Positions 17,173-51,949 of a stretch of DNA of 64,000 nucleotides are shown piece by piece. Position 1 is the stretch's first letter; each line of letters opens with the position of its first letter. The notes under the pieces were generated by a model. The model was not told the DNA's origin. It saw only the letters and a program-made list of their open reading frames with translations, and did not search any database. The stretch spans positions 171,446 through 235,445 of the forward strand of contig JBKBPM010000001.1 in the NCBI GenBank assembly GCA_046293175.1, read 5' to 3'. The DNA comes from Minisyncoccia bacterium. Its GTDB lineage: Bacteria; Patescibacteriota; Minisyncoccia; Phycocordibacterales; UBA918. A program made the position numbers and the translations under genes.

Positions 17173-18063
17173 TTAATCTTGTACCGTGATTGTCATGCCA
17201 ACCTCCGCCCACTCATAGAGTTCGCGGGCTTCACTCGGCTTTACATTCACACAGCCATTACTGTAAGGGCTACCAAAACCATTGTGCCAGTACGCACCGT
17301 GCACTACCGCCCCTTGTTCGGTGAAGTAGAGATTCCACGGGACGCCAGGGAGGTCGTAGTAATTGGTTGAGATACCGGGAATTGGTCCTTGCATGTAGCG
17401 AGACGGAGTTTTGCGAAAAATAGTGAAGGTACCACGCGGGGTGGGGGTGACGGTGCGACCGGTTGATACCCTATAAGTACGGACAAGCTCGTTACCGAGA
17501 TAGGCGTAGAGCACCTGGTCGCTACGGTCGACAAGGAGGCGTTTTGTCGTGGTCGGTGTTTCTGCTGTAAGATCATGGGGACCGTCGGTCTTCACCAGTG
17601 TTCCAGCTCCTTCGGGTATGTACCACGGGAGGGTGAGACGCTCTGGGTAGCGGAGGGTTTCCGGAAAGTCTATTTGGTACCAGCGGGTGCCATCGGCGGC
17701 GGTGACGGTATCTTTGACATACAGGACGGCACCAATACGGAGTTTAGTTCGTTCGGTACTACTCGCGGAAGGGGACGCGTAGGCTCGCACACAGCTTTCC
17801 CCTAGACTGATACTACAACCCGTGGTTATTTCAACGTAGGTGAGTGGTTTTGCTGGTTGATCTTGAAGTGGACCAGTTGGCACTGTTACTCGTGGGAGAC
17901 TTAGTCTCGTGCTCGTAGCTTTAGCTGTAGTAGCAACCACTGTCTCTGGTAGTGGGGTGAGGTGATAGTCGGTCTTAATTTGGCCGTGGAGGATTTGCCA
18001 GAGAAAAAACACACTTATAAGGAGTAGTGGGAATCCCAACAGTGCCAAAGCTGGCCGATTCAT
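17173..18063 (-). CDS. L,D-transpeptidase (YkuD domain) with an N-terminal TM anchor
   Basis: The C-terminal catalytic region reads ...HGAYWHNGFGSPYSNGCVNV, matching the YkuD His/Cys catalytic motif. Confidence 0.8.
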   Translation of the reverse strand: MNRPALALLGFPLLLISVFFLWQILHGQIKTDYHLTPLPETVVATTAKATSTRLSLPRVTVPTGPLQDQPAKPLTYVEITTGCSISLGESCVRAYASPSASSTERTKLRIGAVLYVKDTVTAADGTRWYQIDFPETLRYPERLTLPWYIPEGAGTLVKTDGPHDLTAETPTTTKRLLVDRSDQVLYAYLGNELVRTYRVSTGRTVTPTPRGTFTIFRKTPSRYMQGPIPGISTNYYDLPGVPWNLYFTEQGAVVHGAYWHNGFGSPYSNGCVNVKPSEARELYEWAEVGMTITVQD

Positions 18064-22958: not shown

Positions 22959-23669
22959 ATGAAAAATCCATGGGTTGTTTTGGGCGTTCTATTTGTCCTT
23001 CTTATTGGTGGCGCAATGTGGTATTCGGCTGGGGCCAATGATACCTATAATGCTGGTGTTGAAGTAAAGGCTCATATCAAGGGTAATCCTGATGCGGCAG
23101 TGAAGCTGGTTGAGTACAGTGATTTTCAGTGTCCGGCTTGTGCGCAGTTTCATGGCGTCGTAAAGGAAATTGTTGATGAATATGGTGATCAACTCTCATT
23201 TGAATACCGTCATTTTCCACTGACGCAGATTCATCGTCTCGCTGAGCCGGCTGCTCGGGCGGCCGAAGCCGCTGGTCAGCAAGGCAAGTTCTTTGAATTT
23301 CACGATCTTCTCTTTGAGAACCAAGGGACTTGGTCAAACAGTACCAACCCTGCGCAGTTCTTCCTTCAATACGCGAACGAAGTAGGTCTCGATATTGATG
23401 AATTTACCCGTATGCAGCGTTCATCAATTCTCCGTAATCATGTCCGGTCACAGTTCACCGAAGCACGTACCGCAGGCTTTACGGGTACACCATCCTTCCT
23501 CCTTAATGGTGAACCGATGGAGTTTCAGACCTTTGATGAATTCCGTGCTCAGATTATCAATGCTATTGATCCATCAGTAGATATCACGGGCGGTATGGGT
23601 GCTCCTGCCGCAGCGGGTACAGTTGAGACGCAATCTGAGGCCGCTCCAGCCGTTCAGTTTGGGATTTAA
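22959..23669 (+). CDS. dsbA: DsbA-family thiol:disulfide oxidoreductase (membrane-anchored)
   Basis: A CPAC active site is present together with a GTPSFLLNG cis-Pro region. Confidence 0.75.
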   Translation: MKNPWVVLGVLFVLLIGGAMWYSAGANDTYNAGVEVKAHIKGNPDAAVKLVEYSDFQCPACAQFHGVVKEIVDEYGDQLSFEYRHFPLTQIHRLAEPAARAAEAAGQQGKFFEFHDLLFENQGTWSNSTNPAQFFLQYANEVGLDIDEFTRMQRSSILRNHVRSQFTEARTAGFTGTPSFLLNGEPMEFQTFDEFRAQIINAIDPSVDITGGMGAPAAAGTVETQSEAAPAVQFGI

Positions 23670-24406
23670 TCAATTATATGCCACGTCACACTGACTCGGT
23701 CAGTGTAACTTTTGAATCGCGCCCACTGCTGTCTGGTAGCTTCTCTCGTAAACAGATGTCCGTGTAGTGGCATTGAAATACTTTCGTTAGTCACAAAATA
23801 CAAACTGTCGCCATCTATTTCTGATTCAGTAAATTCGAGAGCTTCAAAATCTTTTGGAAGATAGGGTTTGTAACCGAGCGCAATTTTAAACAGAGCGAGT
23901 CCAATGCTTGAGTGTTTACCGTAGCCGTTTCGATCCTTACCGTGGCTGATGTATTTTTTTCTAAGGTCGGCTGCATGTTTCGTGATAAGGTAGTCCGCAT
24001 ATAACGATGGACCTGCTGGCAATTTACTGTATATCCATTGGTTAGTAAATATTTTGTATGCAATGTTTATTGACTCTTCGGTAATTGAGAAAATCAATCC
24101 ACCAAGCTGTTTGCCTTGTTCTGAAATAGTTAGTATATGATAGGTTTTTTGGTCAGTGTTCTTAGTAGTTTGCTCGATATCAAATATAACCGGACTATTT
24201 TTTTGTGAAATTGTATTTGTATATAGCGGAGTGAACCATTCAAGAAGTGCTGGAGTAAGAGCAGTTATGTTAGAGGTGATTCCGTCACGACTGCTGTGTG
24301 TTTCTGTTTTTAGAATTCTTTTTGCTGACGTCTGACCATACTGATCTGTGATACCGGTTGTTGGATCTTTCCTCCAGGTAACTTTGTTTGGACCGATATA
24401 TTTCAT
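23666..24406 (-). CDS. hypothetical protein, paralog A of a tandem pair (possible acyl/aminoacyl-transferase-like fold; unassigned)
   Basis: The protein shares clear similarity with the adjacent ORF. One aligned block is GKQLGGLIFSITEES.NIAYKIF...PSLYADYLITKHAADL against GQLVGGTIFTMRPDRLSIAYRTY...PALYAEYIITAYALDN. A second is HGKDRNGYGKHSSIGLALFKIALGY against HGVDHNPYGVNSHIGVAIFKLAVGC. Confidence 0.45.
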   Translation of the reverse strand: MKYIGPNKVTWRKDPTTGITDQYGQTSAKRILKTETHSSRDGITSNITALTPALLEWFTPLYTNTISQKNSPVIFDIEQTTKNTDQKTYHILTISEQGKQLGGLIFSITEESINIAYKIFTNQWIYSKLPAGPSLYADYLITKHAADLRKKYISHGKDRNGYGKHSSIGLALFKIALGYKPYLPKDFEALEFTESEIDGDSLYFVTNESISMPLHGHLFTREATRQQWARFKSYTDRVSVTWHIID

Positions 24407-25221
24407 AGAGTTGGTGTATACAACGTTACTTGTAGTTGTTGAGGATACTTGAATACCTGTTCATATTTCTCTGCAGTACTAGTATCTCCAATCAAATACG
24501 CTTTTGTTATTCGTTCCCCACTTTCTGGATAGAGAAGTACCAATGAACCGAACGGTAGCATCTGTAAATCTGACTCACACAAACTGTGTGTGGTAACAAT
24601 ATCTGGGTAGCAACCGACTGCCAATTTAAAAATAGCTACTCCGATATGCGAATTGACCCCGTAAGGATTATGATCAACACCGTGAACCAGTATAGATAAG
24701 TCATTATCAAGTGCGTAGGCGGTAATAATGTATTCAGCATAAAGGGCGGGGGAGCATTTAGTTTGGTGCTGCAGCCATGATAATGGATAGGTGCGGTATG
24801 CAATTGATAAACGATCAGGACGCATGGTAAAAATCGTGCCACCAACCAGCTGTCCTTTTTCTCGTAGGGTAAGTATGAAGTAGGGATACTTTATTACTTC
24901 TTTCCCAAGTGTTGTTTTAAAAATATTGTGCGGCTTTGGATTATGTTTATCTTGTAGATTTTTTAGATACATTGCCTCAAACCATTGTATATCTTCATTT
25001 GTTGCGGGCGTGATAGTATGACTAATTTCCGCTGAGTCAATTTGATTTAAAAGGACGGTTATTTTTTTTGTATTATTTTTTCCAAAATCAGGAAGTATAT
25101 CTGGATGGATATATTTAATCCAGCGATGTTTATCGGCATGAGTGATTTTCATACGGTAGATAACTTGCATATGTATAACATATGTGGTACTATTAAACAA
25201 ATATTGACGGCTCAAAATCAA
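24403..25221 (-). CDS. hypothetical protein, paralog B of the tandem pair
   Basis: It is paralogous to 23666..24406 (see above) and overlaps it by 4 nt. The surrounding DNA is AT-rich. Confidence 0.45.
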   Translation of the reverse strand: MILSRQYLFNSTTYVIHMQVIYRMKITHADKHRWIKYIHPDILPDFGKNNTKKITVLLNQIDSAEISHTITPATNEDIQWFEAMYLKNLQDKHNPKPHNIFKTTLGKEVIKYPYFILTLREKGQLVGGTIFTMRPDRLSIAYRTYPLSWLQHQTKCSPALYAEYIITAYALDNDLSILVHGVDHNPYGVNSHIGVAIFKLAVGCYPDIVTTHSLCESDLQMLPFGSLVLLYPESGERITKAYLIGDTSTAEKYEQVFKYPQQLQVTLYTPTL

Positions 25222-25262
25222 TCCGTCAAAACACTATTACTCCTATTTGTTGCAGATCTTAT

Positions 25263-26534
25263 ATGAAGAAAGCAAGACAAAAAAATATTATTGCTTTTGT
25301 GATGAGTCCGCATGAATCGTCGGTTACTAGTTTACGTGAGTATGAAAAGAAAAATAAAACTCAGTTTCGTTTGATGCTTATTTGGGATATTAATTATCCG
25401 TTGCCGCAAAATCTTGAACGATATGACGTAGTTGTGCAAATGGATTTTTCTAAGTCAATTCGGATAAGTGAAGCCCTTTTACCTTACCAAGATGAACTTC
25501 TTGCAATCACTTGTCGGAGTGAGGCTAATATTGCTCGATTTGCTAAAGTGATTCCTTTTGTTCCGTACTTACGTACTCCTACCACTGAATCACTCATCTG
25601 GGCAACGGATAAGTATGAAATGAGAAAGCGCTTTCGATTATTTGATCAAAAGATAACGCCAAAATTTACTCGAGTAAAAGATGTTTCAAAAAGTGAGCGA
25701 ACACGGGTAATTGCAAAAGTTGGTTTTCCGATGATTATTAAACCTACCAATTTGGCAGCGAGTTTATTTGTGTCTATTTGTTACCACGAGGATGAATTGG
25801 AAAAAGCACTCAAAACATGTTTCAAGAAGCTCGAAAAAGCCTATGCTCACGATAAGCGAATTGAACAACCAAAAGTAATTGCTGAGCAATACATGGAGGG
25901 AGATATGTATTCTATTGACTCGTATGTAAATAGTAGAGGTGCTGTATATCATTTACCCTTGGTGCGCGTAAAAACTGGCAAAGATATTGGTCACCAGGAC
26001 TTTTATGGCTATCTGCAGATGACCCCAACCATCCTTAAGGGTGAGACCGTGAAGCGGGCAGAAGCGGTAACTGAGACGGCCATTCATGCACTTGGTTTGC
26101 GAAGTACTACTGTGCATACTGAGTTGATGAAAATTGATAATGTGTGGAAAGTAATTGAAGTTGGTCCTCGGATGGGTGGGGCACGAGACAAGCTGTATCA
26201 TCTCAGTTGTGGTATTGATCATCCACTGAATGACGTATTTATTCGTATTCCGAAGAAACCAAAAATTCCGAAAAGATGTGTTGGCAATGCTGCATTTATG
26301 AAATGGTTTCTTCCTAAAGAGGGGATTATTACGGAAATGAAGGGTATTAAAAAAATTGAGCAATTAGAGTCATTCTACAAAATCGAAGTTAACAAAAAAA
26401 TTGGCGATAAGGCTACTTTTGCTCGACATGGAGGGCGGTCTATTTTTAATCTCTACATGCATAATGCCGATCGTGGAAAGTTGCTTGCTGACATTAGACG
26501 AGTTGAACAGATGGTTAAAATTAAAGTGAAATAA
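25263..26534 (+). CDS. ATP-grasp domain ligase (L-amino-acid-ligase/carboxylate-amine-ligase-like)
   Basis: ATP-grasp elements are present: ...VIAKVGFPMIIKPTNLAAS..., EQYMEGDMYSIDSYV and VIEVGPRMGG. It is transcribed divergently from the paralog pair and is AT-rich. Confidence 0.6.
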   Translation: MKKARQKNIIAFVMSPHESSVTSLREYEKKNKTQFRLMLIWDINYPLPQNLERYDVVVQMDFSKSIRISEALLPYQDELLAITCRSEANIARFAKVIPFVPYLRTPTTESLIWATDKYEMRKRFRLFDQKITPKFTRVKDVSKSERTRVIAKVGFPMIIKPTNLAASLFVSICYHEDELEKALKTCFKKLEKAYAHDKRIEQPKVIAEQYMEGDMYSIDSYVNSRGAVYHLPLVRVKTGKDIGHQDFYGYLQMTPTILKGETVKRAEAVTETAIHALGLRSTTVHTELMKIDNVWKVIEVGPRMGGARDKLYHLSCGIDHPLNDVFIRIPKKPKIPKRCVGNAAFMKWFLPKEGIITEMKGIKKIEQLESFYKIEVNKKIGDKATFARHGGRSIFNLYMHNADRGKLLADIRRVEQMVKIKVK

Positions 26535-26538
26535 ATGG

Positions 26539-26570
26539 GGACGGGGCAGGCATGCCCCGTCTTTGTTTGT
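26539..26570 (+). terminator. Rho-independent terminator
   Basis: GACGGGGCA-GGCA-TGCCCCGTC is followed by TTTGTTTGTT. Confidence 0.6.
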
Positions 26571-26584
26571 TATGATAGTGCTGT

Positions 26585-27346
26585 ATGGTACGAACCCGGG
26601 ATTTTGTTCTGTTCCTCCTTACGGTGGCGATTTTGTTGTTGGCGATTATGGGTACGTCGGTCTGGCACAGCTGGCGGACGCTACCATTTATGGCGGGGTT
26701 TTTAGCTGACAGTGGTACCGAGGTAGACTACACCGCCAATGTTCCAGCTCCCGAAGATAATCGGGAGGGTCGTCTTCTGACATTGCGGGCCAAAGTAATT
26801 GAGCGTCTGGGGTCAAACACGGTGGCGAAAAGTGAACCAGAGCCAGAACCGGCAGCCCCAGTTACTGTACCGACCACCACAACCCCAGTTGCAGTAGCTA
26901 CTGTAAAAACTTGTGCTGGGTATCGTACCTTGAACATCCCATGGACACCACAACAGATAATTGCTGAGAACCGCGAAGGCGCCCGGGTCTACTTTGAGCG
27001 TGGATTGCCAGATCCACTGGCGTCTACTACGCCAGAAAATATCCGAGCAGTGATATCACTTCGTAGTTGGCCTGCGGGTAGTTCGACTTGTATCCCAACC
27101 GATGTCATTGGTATTGCTACTGATGGTTCACTTATCCGCAATAATGAACTGGCGCTCTACACTGTCTTTGGCGGAGAAAGTCTGGTCGGATACTCACTTG
27201 ATGGTTTTCCGATTTATGGACCGAGTACTGTCGCCACTGACGCTTGTGGTGGTGCAATCGTTGGCGGACAATATCGATATATCCTTGATGCTGAAAGACC
27301 AGGACTGATTACTTGTTTTGCCGCTGCACCAGCAACCATAAACTAA
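26585..27346 (+). CDS. membrane-anchored hypothetical protein with a Pro/Thr-rich linker
   Basis: An N-terminal TM helix is followed by an EPEPEPAAPVTVPTTTTPVAVA linker and a Cys-containing domain. No family was recognised. Confidence 0.4.
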   Translation: MVRTRDFVLFLLTVAILLLAIMGTSVWHSWRTLPFMAGFLADSGTEVDYTANVPAPEDNREGRLLTLRAKVIERLGSNTVAKSEPEPEPAAPVTVPTTTTPVAVATVKTCAGYRTLNIPWTPQQIIAENREGARVYFERGLPDPLASTTPENIRAVISLRSWPAGSSTCIPTDVIGIATDGSLIRNNELALYTVFGGESLVGYSLDGFPIYGPSTVATDACGGAIVGGQYRYILDAERPGLITCFAAAPATIN

Positions 27347-31461: not shown

Positions 31462-32664
31462 TTGGGTATGTATAATGCCAAACAAATTGTGATTTCAAGC
31501 ACAATAAGTGTCATTATTGTGCTTAGTATTTTGTATGTTTTTCGGTACCAACTTGCTGCTACTCTCGTAGTCTTGCCAGCGGTAAGTAATGACGTGGTTA
31601 CGAGCGATACATCTCCTGTTGCAGTTTCAATTCCTGAAATAATTGACCAAGTTGATGGTGCGGTTGTGTCAGTAGTTGCTACTAAAGACGTTCCCGTCTA
31701 TGAGCGTTATCTTGAGGAATATAATCCGTTTGGTGATTGGTTTGGAGGTTTTTCGATTCCGCGTATTCGAGAAAATGGAACTGAGTCACGTGAAGTTGGT
31801 GGTGGTACGGGTTTTATAGTTTCAGATGAAGGTCTGATTGTTACTAATCGACATGTCGTAGTAGATGAAGAAGCCTCCTATTCTGTCGTATTGGCAGATG
31901 GAAGTATTCATGGAGTACGGGTAAAAGCAAAAGACCCTGTCTTTGACATAGCACTACTCCAGTTTGAACAGTTGCCAAAGAACCCATTTCCACATCTTTC
32001 ATTTGGTGATTCTGATGCTGTTCGACGTGGTGATACCGTTATTGCGATTGGTAATGCCTTAGCAGAATTTGATAACTCCGTATCTGTCGGCATAATTTCT
32101 GGTATTGGGCGATCTATTACCGCCCGTGACGGTATGGGTATGACCGAACAACTTTCGAATGTTTTTCAAACTGATGCGGCGATTAACCCAGGAAACTCTG
32201 GTGGACCACTACTAAATAATCGAGGTGAGGTTATCGGAGTTAATGTTGCAGCGTCACTAGGTGCTGAAAATATTGGTTTTGCAATTCCATCGGACACCGT
32301 TAAACAAATTGTTGATTCAGTTACTACCTATGGCGAAATAAGACGACCATTCCTCGGTGTGCGTTATACAATGATAACTGAGCGTATGGCAAAGAAGAAC
32401 AACTTAGACATCACATACGGAGCCCTCGTGGCTCGGGGGGAGACAATGGAAGATTTAGCGGTGATGCCTGGATCTCCTGCAGATAAAGCTGGATTAAAAG
32501 AAAATGATATAATTACAGCGATTGATGATGTAACACTTAAGGATACTGATTTGGCCACCGTGTTGCGATCAAAAGCAGCTGACGCCACTATTGTTCTTAC
32601 TATCTTACGCCAAGGTAAAGAAGAAAAAATATCCGTCACATTAGAATCTGCACCACAAGAATAA
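31462..32664 (+). CDS. htrA: HtrA/DegP-family serine protease with a PDZ domain
   Basis: The catalytic triad elements VTNRHVV (His), DIALL (Asp) and GNSGGPL (Ser) are present, with a C-terminal PDZ domain. Confidence 0.85.
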   Translation: MGMYNAKQIVISSTISVIIVLSILYVFRYQLAATLVVLPAVSNDVVTSDTSPVAVSIPEIIDQVDGAVVSVVATKDVPVYERYLEEYNPFGDWFGGFSIPRIRENGTESREVGGGTGFIVSDEGLIVTNRHVVVDEEASYSVVLADGSIHGVRVKAKDPVFDIALLQFEQLPKNPFPHLSFGDSDAVRRGDTVIAIGNALAEFDNSVSVGIISGIGRSITARDGMGMTEQLSNVFQTDAAINPGNSGGPLLNNRGEVIGVNVAASLGAENIGFAIPSDTVKQIVDSVTTYGEIRRPFLGVRYTMITERMAKKNNLDITYGALVARGETMEDLAVMPGSPADKAGLKENDIITAIDDVTLKDTDLATVLRSKAADATIVLTILRQGKEEKISVTLESAPQE

Positions 32665-34393: not shown

Positions 34394-37159
34394 ATGCGCG
34401 AGGGAGTTCCTCAAGAAAAATTTACTAGTCCTGAAGAAGAGATTGCTTTTTTGCGTGAGCGCATTGCGCTCCGCGAACGGGAATTGCTCTCGCGTCAACC
34501 CGAAGCCGACCATAATGACTTTGAAGCGGTAGCAAAAACCGAACTGCGTGAGTATGGCATGTTTACCCCAAAGGTGATTCTTGATGGTGGTCGAGTGATG
34601 GATGGCCACGAGCTCGCGAGCCTGCAGGAACATATCGCAACTACTCGTACTCCGATCGAGGACATCCTCGTGCTCGCCGCCGAAAAGGGGATTCGCAACG
34701 CACTCTCCGTCCTTGAGAAGGTAAATAATCCGTACGTGATTGATGAAGTGCACCGCTCTCTGATCGAACAAATCAAAGGTGGTATGACGACACAGGACCT
34801 GAAAGAAGGTGTGCCACCATGGCAGATACTCCATATGACACTCTTTGAGGTGACCTTACCAGAGCTCAAAAATAGCCAAGATCGCGAGTATCAATTAGCC
34901 GACCTCATCGGCATGATGGAGCAGCTCTTTCGAGGACTGCGTATCATATCAAGCAAGGATAGCTCACAACATGTAGCGCTTGAGATTGCGGTGGCGGACA
35001 ATAGCGACGACATCGTGTTTTATGCAGCTGTACCAACGGAGTTTGTCACGCTTTTTGAAAAGCAGACGCTCTCGCTGTTTCCGCACGCAGTCCTCAGTGA
35101 ACAAGTCCACGATTACAACATTTTTGTCGATGGGGGAGTGAGTATCATCTCCGAGCTTGGACTTAAGAAGCATCCGATCTATCCGCTCCGGACTCATGAG
35201 GCGTTTTCCTCTGACCCGCTGGCAGTACTTCTTAATGCCTTTTCAAAAATTGAACGAGACGGTGGCGGAGCGGCCGTGCAGTTTCTCTTTCGTCATCCGA
35301 AACAATCGTATCGCAGTTCCTATGAAGAAATTGTAAAACGAGTCAAAAAAGGTATGAAGCCAGCGGAAGCGATTCGTCGTAGTACATTAACTGGTGAAAT
35401 GTTAGCCGGGGTCGGTGAACTCTTTTTCTCAAGTGCCAAACCAAAAGACAGTGTCCCACCTGAGCCAGATCAAGAAGCCCTTGAACTCTTCGCCGAAAAA
35501 CAGAAGGGCGATATTTTCGAAACCAATATCCGTATTGCCGTCTCAGCGCGTGATCAACAAAGAGCCAGAGATATTTTGCGTGAAATCGAAGCGACCTTTG
35601 GACAGTATACACATCTGACCGGTAATCAATTTACCTTCCAACATCGTACTGGCTCGAGTCTTCGTCTCGCCGAAAAAGCCTTTTCATTCCGTGAATTTAA
35701 CGGGAAAATCGCTTTGCCGCTCTCGGAGACTGAGCTCTCGACCATTATTCACTTCCCAGGTAACGGGATTGTTTCTTCACCACAGTTTAAGCAGGCACAC
35801 GCTGCTACGGCCGCCGCTCCAACTGATATGCCCACTACAGGCACACTTTTGGGTATCAACCGCCACCGCAATATCGAAAGGGCAATTTACATGACTGAGA
35901 AAGACCGCATGCGCCACTTCTACGTCATTGGTCAGACTGGTACCGGTAAGTCGGTCTTCCTGCAAAACCTCATTCATCAAGATATCGAGGCCGGCCACGG
36001 TGTCTGTATGATTGACCCGCATGGGACTGATATTCAAACAGTACTCGGCTCCATCCCGGCCCATCGTGAACAGGATGTTATCTACTTTGACCCCTCAAAT
36101 CTCGAGAACCCAATTGGACTTAATATGCTCGAGTACGACGAACGCAAGCCCGAGCAAAAGACCTTTGTCGTGAACGAACTCTTTTCAATCTTCCAAAAGC
36201 TTTACGGGGCAAACCCTGAAAGTATGGGGCCGATGTTCGAGCAATACTTCCGAAACGCTACCTTGCTCGTCATGGAGGATCCGGAGAGTGGTAACACGCT
36301 CATGGATATTAGTCGGGTGATGGCAGATGCCAAGTACCGCCGCATGAAACTCGAAAAGGCTAAGAATCCCGTCGTAGTCCAGTTCTGGCGCGAGATAGCA
36401 ACGAAGGCCGGGGGTGAGGCGTCACTTGAGAATATCGTACCATACATTGTATCTAAGTTCGATGTCTTTACGGCGAACGACTACATGCGACCAATTATTG
36501 GTCAGCAGAAGAGTGCGTTTAACTTCCGGCAGATTATGGACGAGCGGAAGATTCTTCTCGTTAATCTCTCAAAAGGTCGTCTTGGTGAAATCAATGCCAA
36601 CCTCATCGGTATGATTGTGGTGGGGAAGATTCTCATGGCCGCGTTGTCGCGCGTGGATAATCCAGCTATGGATTTTGCACCCTTTTTCCTCCACATCGAT
36701 GAGTTTCAAAATGTTTCGACTCCATCCATTGCGTCAATTCTCTCTGAAGCCCGTAAGTACAAGCTCTCGCTCACCATAGCCCACCAGTTCATCGCGCAGC
36801 TTGATGAAGATATTCGTGATGCGGTGTTTGGAAACGTGGGATCAATTGCCTCATTCCGGGTGGGCTCGGAAGATGCGACCTTCCTTGAAAAACAGTTTGC
36901 CCCGTCATTTGAAGCGAACGACCTTATGAACGTCCCGAACTGGAATGCCTTTGTCCGTATGCTTGCTAATGGCGTGCCCACTAAGCCTTTTAGTCTTGCC
37001 GCCATGCCGCCACCAGCGTCTAATCCTGATCGAGTTGAACTTCTCAAAGAGTTCAGTGCCAAACACTACGGCCGTCCGCGCCACGAGGTTGAGGCGGAGA
37101 TATCCGCACGTTACATCAAGGAAGTACCAGCACTTCCATCTCTTAGTGATATACTGTAG
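34394..37159 (+). CDS. VirB4/TraC/HerA-like P-loop ATPase (DUF87-type; type IV secretion-like)
   Basis: The Walker A region reads HFYVIGQTGTGKSVFL, followed by MIDPHGTD. The Walker B/RK region reads FFLHIDEFQNV...EARKYKLSLTIAHQ, as seen in VirB4/TraC/HerA ATPases. No TM helices are present. Confidence 0.5.
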   Translation: MREGVPQEKFTSPEEEIAFLRERIALRERELLSRQPEADHNDFEAVAKTELREYGMFTPKVILDGGRVMDGHELASLQEHIATTRTPIEDILVLAAEKGIRNALSVLEKVNNPYVIDEVHRSLIEQIKGGMTTQDLKEGVPPWQILHMTLFEVTLPELKNSQDREYQLADLIGMMEQLFRGLRIISSKDSSQHVALEIAVADNSDDIVFYAAVPTEFVTLFEKQTLSLFPHAVLSEQVHDYNIFVDGGVSIISELGLKKHPIYPLRTHEAFSSDPLAVLLNAFSKIERDGGGAAVQFLFRHPKQSYRSSYEEIVKRVKKGMKPAEAIRRSTLTGEMLAGVGELFFSSAKPKDSVPPEPDQEALELFAEKQKGDIFETNIRIAVSARDQQRARDILREIEATFGQYTHLTGNQFTFQHRTGSSLRLAEKAFSFREFNGKIALPLSETELSTIIHFPGNGIVSSPQFKQAHAATAAAPTDMPTTGTLLGINRHRNIERAIYMTEKDRMRHFYVIGQTGTGKSVFLQNLIHQDIEAGHGVCMIDPHGTDIQTVLGSIPAHREQDVIYFDPSNLENPIGLNMLEYDERKPEQKTFVVNELFSIFQKLYGANPESMGPMFEQYFRNATLLVMEDPESGNTLMDISRVMADAKYRRMKLEKAKNPVVVQFWREIATKAGGEASLENIVPYIVSKFDVFTANDYMRPIIGQQKSAFNFRQIMDERKILLVNLSKGRLGEINANLIGMIVVGKILMAALSRVDNPAMDFAPFFLHIDEFQNVSTPSIASILSEARKYKLSLTIAHQFIAQLDEDIRDAVFGNVGSIASFRVGSEDATFLEKQFAPSFEANDLMNVPNWNAFVRMLANGVPTKPFSLAAMPPPASNPDRVELLKEFSAKHYGRPRHEVEAEISARYIKEVPALPSLSDIL

Positions 37160-37164
37160 ACGCT

Positions 37165-40092
37165 ATGTCGCTTGAAGCAAAACAAAAGAATCAATTTGAA
37201 GATAAACCATCAGAGTATAGCGTTGCAACATTACGACAACAGGTGGTTGATTTGTCGTCAAAATTTCCTAATATCAAATATCGTGCAGTCGATAAGCAAG
37301 AAGCAATTCGCAATAATTTTGATCAACTTAAACGATTACTTGATCAACCAGACGAAACACTTCTGTCAGAAAGTGAATGTAACCTTGCTGAAGGATTACT
37401 CACTAATATAAAAACACTCCTCGATTTACCTGTAACAGAAGAGCATCGTAACCGAGTAAATAATCGACCTATTCCTGTTGTCTTGCAAGCAATGCCTGGC
37501 ACAATCAGAGAGTCTGATTCCGCAGCTACTGAAATAGTTCAAGAAGTTAAAGAATCATTCAGTGATACAGATGAATTAATCGATCTTTCTGACAGTGCGC
37601 AGTTTGAACAATATGATCAGGAACTCTTAGAGGCAACAAAAAAAGCCTTTTCAAATCAACAATTTTTTAAGGAACATAGACTTGTACAAGGTCTGCAGGC
37701 CCTCGGAACCATGCGAGTTATTTTTGCGCAATGGGATAGAACATTACAACAAATTAAATCAAATCAACAAAACAATAAAGAAGTCGATACCGGATTGTAT
37801 GAGAAACTGAATAAATATTACAATAAAATCCTCGATTTAATTGAGGTAGTTAATGGTGAAGTCACCACCTTCCGTGCAAACCAAGTAGCTGAAGATGAAA
37901 AAAGTTCGGATAGCAATCCAGTTCTCTCAGGTGATGCTCCTGCTGAAGAAGAATCAATAATTGCTAATGAGTCTATTGTCGCATCTGTATCACCCGCTGC
38001 AGTACCTTTGCCGACTCTTGTATTAACCAATGAAGAGAGGGTAACCGAAGAGTCAGGTGCTCCAGTTACTCTCAAACAGCCGCAAGAATCCACTCAGTCT
38101 CCTGAGGTGTCTGCAACCGAACAAATAAACAACAGCATTATTACCATCGCTGATAAATATAAGGCCGAACGTGAATCACTTGGTCGAGCAGCCGATGAGT
38201 TGTTGGCAAAGCCAAACCTGCCTGCCCACGTGCTACAGTCACTCACTTTTGCGAAGTCTGAAATGCTCGTGCATCTTGAACAACTTTCATATACTGATCC
38301 ACAGTACATGCAGCTTCGCGAACGAGTAAAGGAAGTCATTAACGCAGCACAGCAATTAACTGGCGAAGATATCACTATAGCACCAGCACCAAAAATTGAA
38401 GGAGCTAATCACCATCTCGCACCAGAGACAAGAAAGAAACTCTCAGAGAATTCAAAATTACGAGCTGCTTTGTTAGTTGCTATGGTAGCAATCGTGTCAC
38501 CAAATAATGTATCCGACTATAGTGATAATTTCGTAGTTGCTTCAGCTGACATGAGTTCACCACTCAGTCGAATGGGCGAACATGCGCAGTGGATCGGCGA
38601 TACTGCCAGTGGTATTTTGGCAGCTGCTGAGAAAGATGAGCCTAAAAAATTAGTTGTTGTTCGACCATACACAGGCGAAGAGGAAGTCTCTACGGTAACT
38701 GCTGAAGCTCCAACTGAGACGAGGATTACAAACATGAATTTTGCCTCCAGTGGAGAGACTCCACCCTCGGTTGTGGCTGAAGCTGGATCATTACCAGCGG
38801 TAGACCTCAGCGAAGACAATCTACCAAAAGTATCTGAAATAGTCGTAAATCGTTTTGGTTATGAACCAACCGCTCTTGAAGTTGACACTCGTGAGTCAAT
38901 GGTAACGGCTGCTGATACTTCAGTATCCGAGCCAACAATAACAAAAATAGCTGAACCTGATCCCAAGAGCCCAGCCTACCAAGAAAGTATCGCTCCGACT
39001 GAATCAGTAGCTAGTGGTAATACTGTCGTAGAAGTTTTACAAGGTAATGAAGCAACGTACCCAGACCGAGCTATCGATCCACTCCTCGCGGCTGTTGATG
39101 CAACTGGTATTCCTCTGGTACTCGCGAACAAACTCCGCGCCGAAGAGAAAGAAGCGTTCCTGTCTGACGCCAACCGCCTTCGGGCCGCTGGGGTAGGTAG
39201 TGGTCAAAAGAATGTTACTTTCCCAGGCGAAAAAATCAACTACAGTGACCCGGTAGCAAGACTCGATCAGCGTTTTAATGAGTATCGTCAATACTTAAGT
39301 GTACCCCATACAGAAGTAGCGGTTGAAGGAGACAATCTCACTAAACTCGTGGAGAAGTCATACGCACGTGATCTCGCCGTACTCTCTCCAGCTGATCGCT
39401 TGCCGGTAGTAGAGGAAGCTCTGGCCGCGTATCTTGCAACACCTGGAGCCCTCGAAAATCTCAAGCTTAAGGATAAAGATACTGTTCCAATTGCTGCGGT
39501 CGTGCCACTTCAGGTGTTGGCCCGCTATCTCGCTGATGCGGTGGCTAAAAAAGTTCTCACCGCAAATGAGTCTGGTAGCGCTTCGGAAGTATTGGTAGAT
39601 GATAGTTCAACTGCAGAAACGATTGCAGTAGATGTAGATGCCACTTTTAATGCATCTGAAGAATCAGGTAGTGCTTCAAAAGTTATTGAAGACAGGGGTG
39701 AGCCCGGTGAAGTAACGTCTCCGGAAGAATATCCGGGCGGTGTTATAGCGTTTAGCCAGGCCTATAATCAATTGCTCGAATCGTTTGGTATTGCGATTAA
39801 AGCTCCGGCAATGTTTGATAGCTGGTTTACCGTTAATCGGGCAGAATATAATAATCGAGAATTGCTCGGTATGACCGTAGGGGAGATAACCACTATTATG
39901 ATGCAAGATCCGGTAGAGGTGATGCGTGAGCTCAATGCACGCAAGATAAGTCCTGAAGCCGCTAATGCAGTCTATCAGCTTGTCATTGAAGCACGCAAAA
40001 ATGGTTTGGCTCCGTATGCAACTGACTCGACAATCACACTTGAAGAAGTGATCAAACGAAAGGTGCTCGCCGATGCATCAACTAATAAGTAA
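37165..40092 (+). CDS. large acidic hypothetical protein (975 aa)
   Basis: A long uninterrupted ORF with protein-like composition and low complexity in parts. No family was recognised. Confidence 0.4.
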   Translation: MSLEAKQKNQFEDKPSEYSVATLRQQVVDLSSKFPNIKYRAVDKQEAIRNNFDQLKRLLDQPDETLLSESECNLAEGLLTNIKTLLDLPVTEEHRNRVNNRPIPVVLQAMPGTIRESDSAATEIVQEVKESFSDTDELIDLSDSAQFEQYDQELLEATKKAFSNQQFFKEHRLVQGLQALGTMRVIFAQWDRTLQQIKSNQQNNKEVDTGLYEKLNKYYNKILDLIEVVNGEVTTFRANQVAEDEKSSDSNPVLSGDAPAEEESIIANESIVASVSPAAVPLPTLVLTNEERVTEESGAPVTLKQPQESTQSPEVSATEQINNSIITIADKYKAERESLGRAADELLAKPNLPAHVLQSLTFAKSEMLVHLEQLSYTDPQYMQLRERVKEVINAAQQLTGEDITIAPAPKIEGANHHLAPETRKKLSENSKLRAALLVAMVAIVSPNNVSDYSDNFVVASADMSSPLSRMGEHAQWIGDTASGILAAAEKDEPKKLVVVRPYTGEEEVSTVTAEAPTETRITNMNFASSGETPPSVVAEAGSLPAVDLSEDNLPKVSEIVVNRFGYEPTALEVDTRESMVTAADTSVSEPTITKIAEPDPKSPAYQESIAPTESVASGNTVVEVLQGNEATYPDRAIDPLLAAVDATGIPLVLANKLRAEEKEAFLSDANRLRAAGVGSGQKNVTFPGEKINYSDPVARLDQRFNEYRQYLSVPHTEVAVEGDNLTKLVEKSYARDLAVLSPADRLPVVEEALAAYLATPGALENLKLKDKDTVPIAAVVPLQVLARYLADAVAKKVLTANESGSASEVLVDDSSTAETIAVDVDATFNASEESGSASKVIEDRGEPGEVTSPEEYPGGVIAFSQAYNQLLESFGIAIKAPAMFDSWFTVNRAEYNNRELLGMTVGEITTIMMQDPVEVMRELNARKISPEAANAVYQLVIEARKNGLAPYATDSTITLEEVIKRKVLADASTNK

Positions 40093-45611: not shown

Positions 45612-45936
45612 GGTCAGCTACTCCCTTTAGTTGTTCAAACATGTCCTCCGCTGAGGCTCCGTTCATATATCAGCACGATTAAAACTATATGTCAATTAAG
45701 TATGCGAAATATTTTGGCCATTGATTGGGGGATGTGGTACACTTCAAATACTTATTCGGAGGTAATTTTACCTTCCCGAATTAACCATTTCACACACCAA
45801 AGTAATCTTTTGGCAGCAAAACTACGCTTCGTCCTCACCATATCTCGATATGACTCGGACTCCAGCTTGTTTTTCGCTCAAAATATTACTTGGTGTTATA
45901 GTGAAAGCGTTAATTAGGGAAGGTAGTAGGATTTTT

Positions 45937-47199
45937 ATGCGCCAATCAAAACTCTTCACGAAGACAAAAAAGGAAGTACCAGCCGACGAGACGTCAAAGA
46001 ACGCTCAGCTCTTGCTGCAAGCGGGCTTTATCTACAAAAACATGGCCGGAGTGTATACTTTCTTGCCACTTGGTCTTCGGGTGATCGAAAAAATCAACAC
46101 GATTATTCGTCGTGAAATGGCAGCTATTGGTACCCAAGAAATGTACATGCCGAGTCTCCAAAACCCCGAACTCTGGAAGAAGAGTAATCGCTGGAGTGAT
46201 GAGTTGGTTGACGTGTGGTTCAAATCTGAGCTGCGCGCTGGTGGCGACGTCGGTTTTGCTTGGACGCATGAAGAGGTGATCACTGATGTAATGCGTCAAT
46301 ACGTGTCATCCTACAAAGATCTCCCATTTGCGGCGTACCACATTCAGACCAAGTTCCGTAATGAGATGCGCGCGAAGAGTGGCATCATGCGTACCCGTGA
46401 GTTTTGGATGAAAGACGCTTACTCCTTCTCAGCGGATGAAGCGCAACACAATGCCTACTACGAAGCCTGTGCGGAAGCCTATATGCGTATCTTTAATGAG
46501 ATTGGTATCGGTAACAAAACGTACAAGACTTTTGCCTCCGGTGGCGCTTTCACTAAGTTCTCGCATGAATTCCAGACCCTCGCTGAAGCCGGTGAGGATA
46601 TTGTGTATGTCTGTGAAGAGAAGGGTATCGCGGTGAATGCCGAAGTTTTGGCGGATGCGGATCTGAGCGAACTGGGTGTCACTCGCGAGGAGCTTATCGA
46701 ACGTAAGAGTATTGAAGTGGGAAATATCTTCTCTCTTGGTACCAAGTTCTCTGAAGCAATTGGATTGATGTTCAAAGATGAGGCTGGGACTGAGCGACCC
46801 GTTATTATGGGCTCATACGGTATTGGTCCCGCCCGGGCGATGGGAACCGTCGTTGATTTGCTTAGTGACGAGAAGGGTATTGTCTGGCCAAAGAGTATTG
46901 CGCCGTACCTCGTTCACCTCGTTGCACTTAATAACGAAGAAGGCGAAATCCGTGACTGGGCTGATGGTCTTTATGCGAACCTGCAGGCGGCAGGAGTTGA
47001 AGTCCTTTACGATGACCGTGATGCCCGTGCCGGTGAGAAGTTTGCTGACAGTGACCTTATTGGTCTCCCATACCGCGTGGTTGTGAGTAAGAAGGGTAAA
47101 GCTGAAGGTCTCTACGAAGTCGTCGAACGTGTAACCGGTGAGGTGAAGAAAGTAAGTGAAACCGAACTTTTTGCACTCCTTGGAGTCGCCACTGTCTAG
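45937..47199 (+). CDS. proS: prolyl-tRNA synthetase (compact form lacking the editing insertion)
   Basis: The N-terminus MRQSKLFTKTKKE and class II aaRS motifs (e.g. FRNEMRAKSGIMRTREFWMKDAYSF) are present, with a C-terminal anticodon-binding domain. The start is the internal ATG of ORF 45850..47199. Confidence 0.9.
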   Translation: MRQSKLFTKTKKEVPADETSKNAQLLLQAGFIYKNMAGVYTFLPLGLRVIEKINTIIRREMAAIGTQEMYMPSLQNPELWKKSNRWSDELVDVWFKSELRAGGDVGFAWTHEEVITDVMRQYVSSYKDLPFAAYHIQTKFRNEMRAKSGIMRTREFWMKDAYSFSADEAQHNAYYEACAEAYMRIFNEIGIGNKTYKTFASGGAFTKFSHEFQTLAEAGEDIVYVCEEKGIAVNAEVLADADLSELGVTREELIERKSIEVGNIFSLGTKFSEAIGLMFKDEAGTERPVIMGSYGIGPARAMGTVVDLLSDEKGIVWPKSIAPYLVHLVALNNEEGEIRDWADGLYANLQAAGVEVLYDDRDARAGEKFADSDLIGLPYRVVVSKKGKAEGLYEVVERVTGEVKKVSETELFALLGVATV

Positions 47200-47200
47200 T

Positions 47201-48277
47201 ATGGCTAAAATGTCGCGCCTCATCCAGAAGATTCTCGGATCTTTCTCAACCGACATTGGTATCGATCTTGGTACCGCCAATACCCTCTTGTATGTCAAAG
47301 GCAAGGGGATTGTTCTTAATGAACCAACGATTGTGGCCGTTAACAAAAAAACGGGACAACTCGTCGCGGTTGGGAATGAGGCCCGGGTGATGCAAGGCCG
47401 CACTCCGAGTCATATCGAAGTGGTGCGTCCACTGGTTGATGGCGTGATTTCAGACTTTGAGGTGACCGAAGAAATGCTCGCGTACCTTATCAACAAAGTG
47501 CGGAGTGAAATGCGTACCTTTATTGCTCCGCGTGTGTTGGTTGGTGTGCCATCAGGAATTACAAACGTGGAAATGCGGGCCGCCCGAGATGCTGCTCGCA
47601 ACGCCGGAGCGCGCGAAGTCTTTCTCATCGAAGAACCAATGGCCGCCGCCATTGGTGCAAAGCTCCCAATTGGCAAAGCGGCTGGTAACATGATTATTGA
47701 TATTGGTGGTGGAACAACTGATATTGCGGTCATCTCTATCAACGGTATCGTTGTGGCCAAAAATCTCCGGGTCGCCGGTGACCATCTCACTGCCGCTATC
47801 ATGTCGTACATCCGCGACCAGTTTAAGGTGTATGTCGGGGAAAAAACGGCCGAAGACGTGAAAATTCTTCTCGCTGCTATCGAAGCACCCGAAGGTGGGA
47901 AGGAGCATGTGGTGCGTGGTCGTGATGTGATTACCGGCCTTCCACGCGAAGTGGTTATCACCGATAGTGATGTCCGTGACGCCATAGCTTCACAAGTAGA
48001 CACTATCGTGGAGTCGGTTCGCGGTGTCCTTGAACAAACACCACCCGAGGTGATGGCTGACATTATGCAGCGTGGTATACATATATCAGGTGGTGGGGCA
48101 CTAATCCCAGGCCTCAAGCAACTCCTTGAAGAAGTGCTTGAAGTCCCCGTCATCATTGTTCCAGACCCCCTGCGGGCTGTCATCCGAGGCGCTGGTATCG
48201 TCATCGAAAACTTAGAACTCTATGAAGAATTACTTATCGACAAAGAAGGGGAGCTCTCGCCAAACCTCCTTACCTAA
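47201..48277 (+). CDS. mreB: rod shape-determining protein MreB
   Basis: The actin-like ATPase carries DIGIDLGTANTLLYVKGKGIVLNEPT and IIDIGGGTTDIAVIS. Confidence 0.9.
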   Translation: MAKMSRLIQKILGSFSTDIGIDLGTANTLLYVKGKGIVLNEPTIVAVNKKTGQLVAVGNEARVMQGRTPSHIEVVRPLVDGVISDFEVTEEMLAYLINKVRSEMRTFIAPRVLVGVPSGITNVEMRAARDAARNAGAREVFLIEEPMAAAIGAKLPIGKAAGNMIIDIGGGTTDIAVISINGIVVAKNLRVAGDHLTAAIMSYIRDQFKVYVGEKTAEDVKILLAAIEAPEGGKEHVVRGRDVITGLPREVVITDSDVRDAIASQVDTIVESVRGVLEQTPPEVMADIMQRGIHISGGGALIPGLKQLLEEVLEVPVIIVPDPLRAVIRGAGIVIENLELYEELLIDKEGELSPNLLT

Positions 48278-49181
48278 AGGGGTACGGATTACGGTACTTC
48301 TCCTGATTGCTGGACTGGTGCTTTTGTATATTCTGCCAAAGCTTGTTTTTGGCGTGGTCTCGGTTGTGCTTTATCCCTTTGAGTCGATGCGGTCATGGAT
48401 TCTTGAGTCACAGGATTCACTTCCATATTATTTGCGCGATCGCTACGAACTCATCAAACATATTGAAGAGCTAGAACAAAAAGTCGCCGTTAGTGGTGGT
48501 ACCGAAAACACTCTCACGAAACTGAAAACTGAAAACGAACAGTTCCGCCTTCTTTGTGAAGCGGTGCCAGATGAGCGCGTTATTGCTCGGGTAGTTGGTC
48601 GTCCGCCCAAACTTCCATACGATGTGGTGATGCTTGATCGTGGAAAAGACCATGGCGTAGTCGAAGAAGCGCCAGTGTTTGTAGGGAGTGACCAAATTAT
48701 TGGGTACGTCTCACGGGTGTACGAACGCACCTCACTCGTCACACTCGTATCAACCGCACAGTTTGAATCGATGGCGTACATCATTGGGCCGAATATTTAT
48801 ACTTATGCCCGTGGTGTCGGTGGGGGAATGATGCGGGTCGTCGTGCCTCAGGGTATTCCGTTGAATGTGGGTGATACGGTGATTTTGCCAGCGATTGATT
48901 CTGGTGTGTATGGCACTATTGCCTATATCGAGACTTCGCCAACCCAGCCAGAGCAATACGGTTATGTGCCGATGGCTAATAATCTTCAGAGTGTGCAGTA
49001 TGTGTCTGTAGGACGTGAGCCGATTGTGCCACATACCTATGAAGAAGCCGAAGAATTGGTCGATAATCTCCGGCACTCGCTCTTTGCAGTGAATCTGCCA
49101 CCAGGAGTTCTGGTGTCACCTGAACTCGCCAGTAGTACCATTAGTACACCATCAACGTCCAAAGCAACAACCACACCATAA
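48222..49181 (+). CDS. mreC: rod shape-determining protein MreC-like
   Basis: An N-terminal TM helix and coiled coil (IKHIEELEQKVA...NEQFRLL) precede a C-terminal beta domain. It lies immediately downstream of mreB. The start position is uncertain. Confidence 0.55.
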   Translation: MKNYLSTKKGSSRQTSLPKGVRITVLLLIAGLVLLYILPKLVFGVVSVVLYPFESMRSWILESQDSLPYYLRDRYELIKHIEELEQKVAVSGGTENTLTKLKTENEQFRLLCEAVPDERVIARVVGRPPKLPYDVVMLDRGKDHGVVEEAPVFVGSDQIIGYVSRVYERTSLVTLVSTAQFESMAYIIGPNIYTYARGVGGGMMRVVVPQGIPLNVGDTVILPAIDSGVYGTIAYIETSPTQPEQYGYVPMANNLQSVQYVSVGREPIVPHTYEEAEELVDNLRHSLFAVNLPPGVLVSPELASSTISTPSTSKATTTP

Positions 49182-49182
49182 T

Positions 49183-49446
49183 ATGTTCTCTTGGCCTCTT
49201 CGAATCATTATGTTTTTTGTTACAACACTCTGTTTTCTATACGGAGCGTATGTGGTTGGTCTTATTTTTGTTATTCTCCTCTCATTACAATATCGCGCCT
49301 ACGAATTTATAGCGCTCGCGTTCTGTATCGACTGTTACTTTTCGCCCGAGCCAATTATGTTTTGGTACACCACAGTAATTACCATTATGGTGTTTTTTGG
49401 GATTTTCCTGCAGCCGTTCATTCGTCGTAATGGACGGTATGAATAA
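49183..49446 (+). CDS. small polytopic membrane protein at the MreD position
   Basis: An 87-aa hydrophobic protein between mreC and mrdA. The assignment rests on synteny only. Confidence 0.3.
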   Translation: MFSWPLRIIMFFVTTLCFLYGAYVVGLIFVILLSLQYRAYEFIALAFCIDCYFSPEPIMFWYTTVITIMVFFGIFLQPFIRRNGRYE

Positions 49447-49451
49447 TAATT

Positions 49452-51870: not shown

Positions 51871-51904
51871 ACAAAGAGTGGCACCTGCGGGTGCCGCTCT
51901 TTGT
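51871..51904 (+). promoter_or_regulatory. 15-bp stem hairpin in the lysS 5' leader
   Basis: ACAAAGAGTGGCACC-TGCG-GGTGCCGCTCTTTGT lies 45 nt upstream of the lysS ATG. It sits downstream of an extended -10-like TGATATAAT at 51821-51829. Confidence 0.35.
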
Positions 51905-51949
51905 GTATCTCTTTATAAAAAGCAAAAATTAAGCTACTATAGCAGTATT

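Follow-up and report, generated by a model that had tools for sequence, protein, structure and literature searches.

The closest described relatives of the locus reported here are the Fem transferases, which are encoded by tandem paralogs such as femA-femB of Staphylococcus aureus and murM-murN of Streptococcus pneumoniae and have FemX of Weissella viridescens as their structural reference; the GNAT-fold natural-product peptide synthases (Sbb17/Sba18 and Orf11 of streptothricin analogues, DhpH-C/DhpK, PacB, and VlmA), which extend small amine-bearing molecules or short peptides by a single residue; the L-amino-acid ligases BL00235, YwfE/BacD, and RizA; and the pairs of RimK-related ligases and QEGLA (MATCAP-like, PF08014) proteins, together with cyanophycin synthetase. 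General accounts link ATP-grasp enzymes, Fem-like GNAT proteins, RimK-like ligases, and peptidases to one another (PMC2922099). Here, we analyzed a 64-kb stretch of DNA (contig JBKBPM010000001.1, hereafter the window) that contains a module of three genes. The module comes from a Candidatus Paceibacteria metagenome-assembled genome, and identical proteins are encoded on a 676-kb contig. Two of the genes, parA and parB, lie on the minus strand and encode paralogous proteins of an uncatalogued family that we treat as Fem-like, and the third gene, AG1, is divergent on the plus strand and encodes an ATP-grasp enzyme. We find that AG1 keeps its place among its neighbors in Paceibacteria, and that the adjoining position, which is occupied here by the two paralogs, is a variable slot for enzymes that make or cut amide bonds.

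The module shares several features with the Fem systems. A GNAT core is common to both, FemX is the best structural match to ParB, an aromatic-lysine pair lies on the equivalent helix, and the HGxDR(x)NxYG motif is shared with FemA. The genes are likewise adjacent, co-transcribed paralogs, which suggests sequential additions of single residues. However, Fem proteins contain 335-420 residues versus ~250 for the Par proteins, which have what appears to be one complete GNAT core, no coiled-coil insert, and neither detectable sequence-profile similarity to Fem proteins nor a Pfam FemAB match, and the partner gene here encodes an ATP-grasp of the L-amino-acid-ligase type instead of belonging to the mur genes. 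Among the natural-product synthases, Sbb17 and Sba18 gave the top template-modelling (TM) score with ParB (0.52) and are nearest in size (~286 residues), and the catalytic Phe-Lys pair is in common (PMC12945691). These synthases are described as double-GNAT proteins of actinomycete or proteobacterial biosynthetic clusters, whereas the module belongs to a reduced Paceibacteria genome and has no other tailoring, resistance, or export gene inside it. AG1 has the ATP-grasp_4 core and the C-terminal LAL_C2-type domain of L-amino-acid ligases, but is only 15-18% identical to them, falls below every NCBIfam equivalog cut-off, and belongs not to an antibiotic cluster but to the conserved syntenic genes of an entire bacterial class. 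The corresponding slot in sister species holds RimK-family ligases, split proteins resembling the G and M domains of cyanophycin synthetase, and QEGLA/MATCAP proteins. None of these genes is present in this window, which has instead the two predicted tRNA-type transferases, and these would extend amines, not carboxylates.

AG1 is a conserved gene next to a variable slot

Loci were surveyed with AG1 as the query in one genome per GTDB species. This gave 80 loci, all of which carry AG1 (individual loci are designated L and a number below); open reading frames (ORFs) were called in them and classed with phmmer, and the classes found in the slot were named with NCBIfam and Pfam. Fifty-one non-redundant species-level loci share the order DsbA, slot, AG1, YHYH-like membrane protein, (exonuclease), GH1, EamA, and GH42. 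AG1 is 64-89% identical across syntenic loci, and between pairs of loci its identity follows that of the flanking proteins (r 0.60). Together with the common synteny, this indicates that AG1 is conserved and mostly vertically inherited. Variation is confined to the stretch between DsbA and AG1, where the slot is empty in 12 and filled in 39 of the 51 loci, and 38 of the 39 filled slots hold exclusively amide-bond-making or amide-bond-cutting enzymes. The occupants include RimK-family ligases (280-290 residues), ATP-grasps closest to the G domain of cyanophycin synthetase (316-369 residues), a Mur-type ligase closest to its M domain (2e-42), a second ATP-grasp_4 protein (411 residues), a MATCAP/QEGLA-type metallopeptidase, and the paralog family, which was found in 14 of the 51 loci, either alone, with RimK, with MATCAP, or paired. 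The ATP-grasps resembling the cyanophycin synthetase G domain also match weakly to TIGR03103, an N-acetylglutaminylglutamine synthetase composed of GNAT and ATP-grasp parts (5e-7 to 3e-11).

The same enzymes recur together elsewhere. AG1 is followed by a paralog-family gene in a co-directional operon in L093, L073, and L078, the latter two outside the conserved synteny, and in the Saccharimonadales loci L086 and L088 AG1 is grouped with RimK and MATCAP genes. In L092 (7001-10929), the neighbors of a distant paralog-family member are a 7TM_transglut protein and an 817-residue protein in which a RimK-related ligase (TIGR02291) is fused to a MATCAP/QEGLA peptidase. The census of the slot and this recurrent linkage outside the synteny are our chief grounds for proposing that AG1 shares a substrate with the slot genes.

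We note some further features of the surveyed loci. The L092 group adjoins mreB and a ribosomal-protein operon. The gene 3' of AG1 (26585-27346, plus strand) encodes a membrane-anchored protein that has a linker rich in Pro and Thr and weakly matches the YHYH domain; it occupies this position in 63 of 64 syntenic loci and diverges fast, with 24-49% identity in most of them. Contigs labelled Acidimicrobiales, Azotimanducaceae, and Patiriisocius (L009/L024, L010/L019, and L029) show the Paceibacteria synteny DsbA-AG1-YHYH-GH1-EamA-GH42. Those labelled Gammaproteobacteria (within L072-L090) lack the synteny and have only AG1 or paralog-family genes of a Patescibacteria-like type. Contigs with these odd taxon labels are probably mis-binned or mis-labelled.

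AG1 resembles L-amino-acid ligases in sequence and predicted fold

AG1 matched Pfam ATP-grasp_4 (8.8e-20) and, below the cut-off, LAL_C2 (4e-5; 24.2 bits versus a cut-off of 29.4), and its best PDB matches by sequence were the L-amino-acid ligases BL00235 and BacD. The AlphaFold2 model of AG1, with a predicted local distance difference test (pLDDT) score of 90.9, superposes over its full length on L-amino-acid ligases with TM scores of 0.71-0.81, well above those of biotin carboxylases. The Foldseek matches were BL00235 (2.3e-28, TM 0.78/0.80), YwfE/BacD (TM 0.80-0.81), and RizA (TM 0.71/0.76). Over 40 homologs, 109 columns are invariant, including K160 (MIIKP), E208 (AEQYMEG), E287, E299, R303, and G305-G306 (EVGPRMGG), and the residues binding ATP and Mg2+ were assigned by motif. 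All NCBIfam matches were far below the equivalog cut-offs (for example, 40 bits versus 850 for BacD). There were 1525 homologs at E<=1e-10, and the best 120 of the 1525 are 64-100% identical to AG1. Judged by sequence and modelled fold, AG1 is an ATP-grasp ligase of the L-amino-acid-ligase type, as a preliminary description of the window had read from its motifs.

The AG1 family has been amplified in some lineages, as AG1-like ATP-grasps occur in tandem in a Magasanikbacteria contig (three copies, L082:2-3877) and a Paceibacterota contig (two copies, L074:3487-6104). We also considered whether AG1 might modify a ribosomally synthesized peptide in the way of graspetide enzymes. This idea was rejected, since the 110-bp intergenic region is too small for a precursor peptide and AG1 is of the L-amino-acid-ligase and not the graspetide type.

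ParA and ParB belong to an uncatalogued compact family

ParA and ParB gave nothing above noise against Pfam and NCBIfam, with no match to FemAB, DUF2156, ATE, or Leu_Phe_trans, and searches of PADLOC and PHROGs returned zero matches, leaving a defense-system or phage origin of the paralogs unsupported. For parA, 27 homologs were found in a database of 5.8 billion proteins, and a full HMMER scan of 1.84 billion representatives recovered 345 clusters of the family at 50% identity. The listed matches are stand-alone proteins, mostly of about 245-285 residues, and so far the family has been seen only in Patescibacteria-like contigs. When Pfam was run on 45 diverse members, one matched Acetyltransf_6 (5.6e-5) and one matched Mig-14; the ten most distant members had no Pfam match. 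In L067 (3539-4330), a gene of the family is split into adjacent ORFs of 163 and 111 residues, by a frameshift in a pseudogene or by an assembly error, which inflates the count of paralog pairs by one.

The AlphaFold2 model of ParB (pLDDT 93.9) has a GNAT/FemAB-type fold, which is among the folds first suggested for the paralogs. In a Foldseek search, the 15 best PDB matches were all aminoacyl-tRNA transferases (FemX, Sbb17/Sba18, MprF, L-/A-PGS, and ATE1), and ordinary or generic tandem GNATs ranked behind them. These 15 matches had E-values of 7e-7 to 8e-6 (up to 1e-5 for the top matches overall) and a probability of 1.0, with TM scores of only 0.37-0.52. Over the 45 diverse members (identity down to 17%), only F58, G158, and K176 are invariant. 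F175 is invariant in 24 close members and forms, with K176, a pair on the predicted helix 170-178, which corresponds to GNAT alpha-4, where FemX_Wv has F304-K305. The family motif HGxDRNPYG...G[VL]AxFK parallels HGIDRYNFYG...GVVKFKKGY of FemA and YVF304-K305 of FemX_Wv; the motifs of FemA and FemX were read from PDB alignments, and the FemA sequence used was verified at 100% identity. The catalytic elements of this enzyme class include Lys305 of FemX and the F328-K329 pair of DhpH-C (PMC12945691). ParA retains all the invariant residues of the family, including HGxDxNxYG and the F-K pair.

The Q/R-x-x-G-x-G/A pyrophosphate loop that binds acetyl-CoA between strand 4 and helix 3 is absent from the family alignment and the model of ParB. 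The segment between E115-121 and H135-149 reads YPLSWLQHQTKCSP and has no glycine conserved in the family. ParB appears to consist of a single full GNAT core with short N- and C-terminal extensions rather than of the double GNAT of FemX. Given this apparent single core at ~250 residues, we treat ParA and ParB as a new compact branch of Fem-like transferases, as judged from the model and the motifs, rather than as Fem proteins proper, and ParB is predicted to be an aminoacyl-tRNA-dependent aminoacyl transferase.

Organization of the module

The three genes and the elements around them are listed in Table 1. In the preliminary description, two overlapping paralogs of 246 and 272 residues were divergent from the ATP-grasp gene. 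The paralogy, the overlap, and the first length hold (ParA and ParB are 29% identical over 245 residues, BLASTP E 8e-33), but the second protein has 249 residues. The parB start is the ATG at 25152 (MKITHADK) in all homologs and in the NCBI gene model of the identical protein, the homologs begin with MxIxH and are 247-253 residues long, and the 272-residue ORF is an upstream extension from a TTG at 25221. The two blocks that were quoted as shared by the paralogs, GGxIF...IAYR/K and HGxDxNxYG..S.IGxAxFK, correspond to the columns that are invariant in the family. The parB stop codon overlaps the parA start codon (ATGA), and parA and the convergent DsbA gene likewise overlap at their stop codons (TTAA).

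Table 1 Coordinates of the module and its flanking elements in the window
Feature	Position	Strand	Description	Basis
parA	23666-24406	-	Distal paralog, 246 residues; uncatalogued Fem-like (GNAT-fold) family	ORF call, homology
parB	24403-25152	-	Proximal paralog, 249 residues; predicted aminoacyl-tRNA-dependent aminoacyl transferase	Homolog starts, AlphaFold2, Foldseek
parB-AG1 intergenic region	25153-25262	.	110 bp, divergent; promoter-like elements in both directions	
AG1	25263-26534	+	423-residue ATP-grasp, L-amino-acid-ligase type; conserved and syntenic in Paceibacteria	
Hairpin terminator	26540-26570	+	Closes AG1; right-hand point where identity to L065 recovers	

In the intergenic region, a promoter-like TTGACG-18-AATATT faces the minus strand at 25229-25200. 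A block of ~30 nucleotides, TATAACATATGTGGTAYTATTAAACAAAT, at about 25176-25205 is conserved in the parB-AG1 intergenic regions of the window, L094, and L001 and includes a TGnTAYTAT extended -10-like element that faces AG1. The paralogs of these genomes are only 52-60% identical (protein, where measured). The block is not conserved in L065. An Rfam search of the region gave only sub-threshold noise and no family match, and on these scores a riboswitch or leader RNA was rejected. Downstream of AG1, a hairpin at 26540-26561 (GACGGGGCAGGCATGCCCCGTC), with a 9-bp stem containing 7 G-C pairs, is followed by TTTGTTTG, so the strong terminator noted earlier at the end of the module was found. The pattern scan reported this hairpin on the minus strand only, and the T tail of the plus strand was read directly from the sequence.

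Outside the module, the window encodes peptidoglycan machinery, namely a YkuD L,D-transpeptidase (17173-18063, minus strand) and MreB, MreC, and a PBP2-type transpeptidase (47156-51152, plus strand). The presence of the YkuD and PBP2-type transpeptidases indicates that the organism makes a wall with both kinds of cross-link. Further genes on the plus strand encode a 921-residue HerA/VirD4/FtsK-like ATPase (34394-37159), followed by a 975-residue protein with no Pfam match (37165-40092), and a 2675-residue Tc-toxin-like protein (54777-62804) with SpvB, TcdB_toxin_midN, FG-GAP, RHS_repeat, and Laminin_G_3 domains, encoded in an AT-rich stretch (GC about 0.40). Small ORFs, one of which has a YD-repeat-like start, follow the Tc-toxin-like gene at 62806-63716. 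The stretch at 37-38 kb is also AT-rich (GC 0.398).

Composition and gene flux

The GC content of the three genes is 0.38-0.39 versus 0.46-0.51 in the flanking genes, ~9 points lower, and the GC content at third codon positions (GC3) is 0.31-0.34 versus 0.41-0.51, which confirms the AT-richness that had first drawn attention to the region as an accessory island. Low GC3 is not unique to the module within the window, as an HtrA-like protease gene (31462-32664, plus strand) has a GC3 of 0.28, as low as that of the module. Among the surveyed loci, the GC content of AG1 is below the mean of its syntenic neighbors in 62 of 65 (by 3.3 points on average), and that of the paralog family is below its neighbors in all 23 (by 6.7 points); MATCAP (10 of 12) and RimK (31 of 37) genes behave alike. 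Low GC is therefore a lineage-wide property of these families, not evidence of a recent arrival here, and it does not serve as the mark of an island.

Two loci were compared with the window in detail. L065 is the closest relative by its flanks, with DsbA, methyltransferase, and EamA proteins 92%, 94%, and 95% identical and flanking DNA ~84% identical at the nucleotide level, whereas AG1 is only 58% and the two paralogs are 34-37% identical in protein sequence. Nucleotide identity to L065 drops from ~0.8 to ~0.5 exactly at the DsbA stop (23650) and returns to 0.86 in 26500-26649, at the terminator, so the ends proposed for the island, 23666 and 26534, coincide exactly with a sharp change in identity. 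With an identity of 0.86 for the flanks and 0.58 for AG1, the window and L065 form the only clearly discordant pair. L094 has the same three genes at the same position with a similar dip in GC (0.37 versus 0.50-0.53). Its flanks and AG1 are ~78-85% identical to those of the window at the nucleotide level and its paralogs 60-68%, a level at which synonymous sites are saturated; in protein sequence, parA is 60% and AG1 89% identical. These comparisons show that the paralogs evolve much faster than their surroundings and that at least one allele replacement separates the window from L065. General co-transfer of AG1 and the paralogs as a cassette was considered and rejected (permutation p 0.92).

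In the preliminary description, the ATP-grasp gene was part of the accessory island, and this does not hold, because AG1 is found at the same position in 51 non-redundant loci with 64-89% identity. The presence or absence of the module in relatives had been named as a check on the island: the paralogs are indeed patchy (14 of 51 loci), but AG1, which was the query, is in all 51. It had also been said that a syntenic position together with genome-typical GC would speak against an island; the position of AG1 is conserved, whereas the dip in GC is real.

Discussion

The unit looks like a peptide-making module, as had been suspected. We tentatively propose, at somewhat less than even confidence, that AG1 forms the first amide bond and that the two Fem-like proteins each add a residue from aminoacyl-tRNA, giving a short, lineage-specific peptide. 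The three genes would then be one lineage's version of a modular, non-ribosomal peptide-assembly locus that is widespread in Paceibacteria. In the cytoplasm, AG1 would activate a carboxylate as an acyl-phosphate and form the first amide bond, and its product would most likely be a dipeptide made from free amino acids. ParB and ParA would each transfer an aminoacyl group from a charged tRNA to the free amine of this product, a single residue per paralog in the manner of FemA/FemB or MurM/MurN, with the invariant Lys176 acting as Lys305 does in FemX. Other species carry carboxylate-extending ligases in this slot instead (RimK-type or similar to the G and M domains of cyanophycin synthetase), together with a MATCAP/QEGLA-type carboxypeptidase that may trim, and the end product would be a short peptide or oligomer whose composition varies by lineage. 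The folds, the enzyme classes, the synteny, and the census of the slot come directly from the analysis; both the tRNA dependence and the order of the steps are predicted, as are the identity of the product and its destination. The ATGA overlap of parB and parA and the conserved intergenic block facing AG1 are counted in favor of a coupling of the three genes.

Several observations weigh against this proposal. AG1 stands alone in 12 of the 51 loci, which implies a function of AG1 that is independent of the paralogs, and its flank-corrected identity was not higher among the paralog-bearing loci in the permutation test given above. The 64-kb window contains no tRNA gene, and there is no dedicated tRNA or aminoacyl-tRNA synthetase paralog beside the module; Pfam matches to class-II aminoacyl-tRNA synthetases lie ~20 kb away (tRNA-synt_2b, 45850-47199; tRNA-synt_2, 51878-53443). 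The fold match of ParB is moderate (TM 0.45-0.52), and its 249 residues leave too little room for two full GNAT domains as in FemX. A profile of 24 homologs found nothing among all PDB sequences at E up to 10, and an hhalign comparison of the 45-member profile with FemA aligned 13 columns (HGxDR-NxYG) at a probability of 2.8%, which is suggestive but not significant. Finally, K176 was equated with K305 by motif and helix position, and not by inspecting a superposition.

The same enzyme classes would also suit a role in the cell wall, where AG1 would add the first residue to the stem peptide in the manner of the ATP-grasp D-aspartate ligase, ParB and ParA would extend a side chain or cross-bridge from aminoacyl-tRNA like FemX/A/B or MurM/N, and the RimK-, CphA-, or Mur-like slot genes would decorate the stem peptide differently by species. 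Bridge synthesis is typically encoded by Fem paralogs in tandem (femAB, murMN), which counts for this explanation. The window itself encodes MreB, MreC, and both transpeptidases, the neighbors DsbA, the membrane-anchored YHYH-like protein, and the EamA transporter are related to the envelope, and the fast divergence and allele discordance would fit a surface structure under diversifying selection. Fem, ATP-grasp, and Mur-type ligases are, moreover, the three known classes that build wall peptides (PMC2922099). However, the closest structures to AG1 act on free amino acids and not on UDP-MurNAc-peptide, the slot ATP-grasps are nearest to RimK and the CphA G domain, and the slot Mur-like protein is nearest to the M domain of cyanophycin synthetase (2e-42) and not to MurE/MurT. 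We also know of no wall role for the MATCAP/QEGLA peptidase. ParB, in addition, appears not to have a full first GNAT domain, which in FemX helps bind UDP-MurNAc-pentapeptide (PMC12945691). We regard the wall explanation, the main rival, as rather unlikely, though one to be taken seriously. The recurrence of RimK-family and MATCAP/QEGLA genes in the slot and beside family members could instead point to reversible protein tagging, in which ligases add amino acids to a protein terminus or side chain and the MATCAP-like peptidase removes them, on the model of RimK (acting on S6), TTL (tubulin), and ATE1 or L/F-transferase (N-termini). The pairing of RimK-related and QEGLA proteins is a known conserved neighborhood (NCBIfam TIGR02291 and TIGR02421), and ATE1 is among the top structural matches of ParB; but no candidate target protein is conserved beside the module, AG1 is closer to ligases of free amino acids than to RimK or TTL, and MATCAP is absent from this window. 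The bacterial L/F-transferase has 234 residues, near the size of ParB, and this counts for tagging, yet L/F-transferase structures were not among the top 50 ParB matches. Overall, tagging seems improbable to us.

We consider it very improbable that ParA and ParB are ordinary acyl-CoA-dependent N-acyltransferases acting on an amino acid or on the AG1 dipeptide to give an N-acyl dipeptide, such as the osmolyte N-acetylglutaminylglutamine amide or a compound resembling N-acetylaspartylglutamate. The fold is indeed GNAT, one family member matches Acetyltransf_6, and the slot ATP-grasps resembling the CphA G domain match weakly to TIGR03103; against this, the pyrophosphate-binding loop is absent, every acetyltransferase was outranked by aminoacyl-tRNA transferases in the fold search, and the Fem-type F-K motif is invariant (K176 in the 45 members, F175 in the 24 close members). 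The picture of the preliminary description, an accessory island for a secondary-metabolite pathway that is self-contained and was recently acquired, is in our view most improbable of all. The GC and GC3 values below those of the flanks, the fall of nucleotide identity to L065 from ~84% in the flanks to ~0.5 between 23650 and 26500, with the low protein identities of AG1 and the paralogs, and the patchy occurrence of the paralogs would all suit such an island. However, AG1 is in all the non-redundant syntenic loci with an identity that tracks the flanks, the low GC is family-wide and not local, L094 has the same genes, place, and GC dip, and the module borders carry no mobility genes, flanking repeats, or tRNA.

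Returning to non-ribosomal peptide assembly as the proposed function, a more general form of it would be a hitherto undescribed "plug-and-play" system of Paceibacteria or, more widely, Patescibacteria, in which a conserved ligase works with interchangeable slot partners to give strain-specific peptides. A recombination-prone slot would bring in N-extending (Fem-like), C-extending (RimK- or cyanophycin-synthetase-like), and trimming (MATCAP-like) enzymes, and the products could, for example, decorate the wall or surface, mediate interaction with a host, or be polymers that store amino acids. We view this generalization as possible but more doubtful than not.

General links between ATP-grasp, Fem-like GNAT, and RimK-like ligases and peptidases were reportedly drawn by Iyer et al. 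in 2009, and our literature search found no paper on the paralog family or on the locus in Patescibacteria. What is new here is an uncatalogued compact Fem-like family in a slot for peptide-bond enzymes beside a conserved gene of the L-amino-acid-ligase type. The family may comprise the smallest tRNA-dependent peptide-bond formers seen so far, and the locus would also supply compact tRNA-dependent ligases for use in biocatalysis.

Patescibacteria live as episymbionts, are ultrasmall and for the most part uncultured, and encode very few biosynthetic pathways. To our knowledge, few genes are known that determine their surface or what they exchange with their hosts. In this setting, an enzyme of the L-amino-acid-ligase type is fixed at one chromosomal position across a bacterial class, and evolution has filled the adjoining slot with makers or trimmers of peptide bonds (38 of 39 filled loci). 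Should the product be a wall branch or surface peptide, the locus would offer a handle on strain specificity in host attachment or in resistance to phages and lysins; a free peptide or polymer would instead represent a rare anabolic capability for Patescibacteria. A plug-and-play system, if true, would operate in organisms that have been regarded as nearly devoid of biosynthetic capacity.

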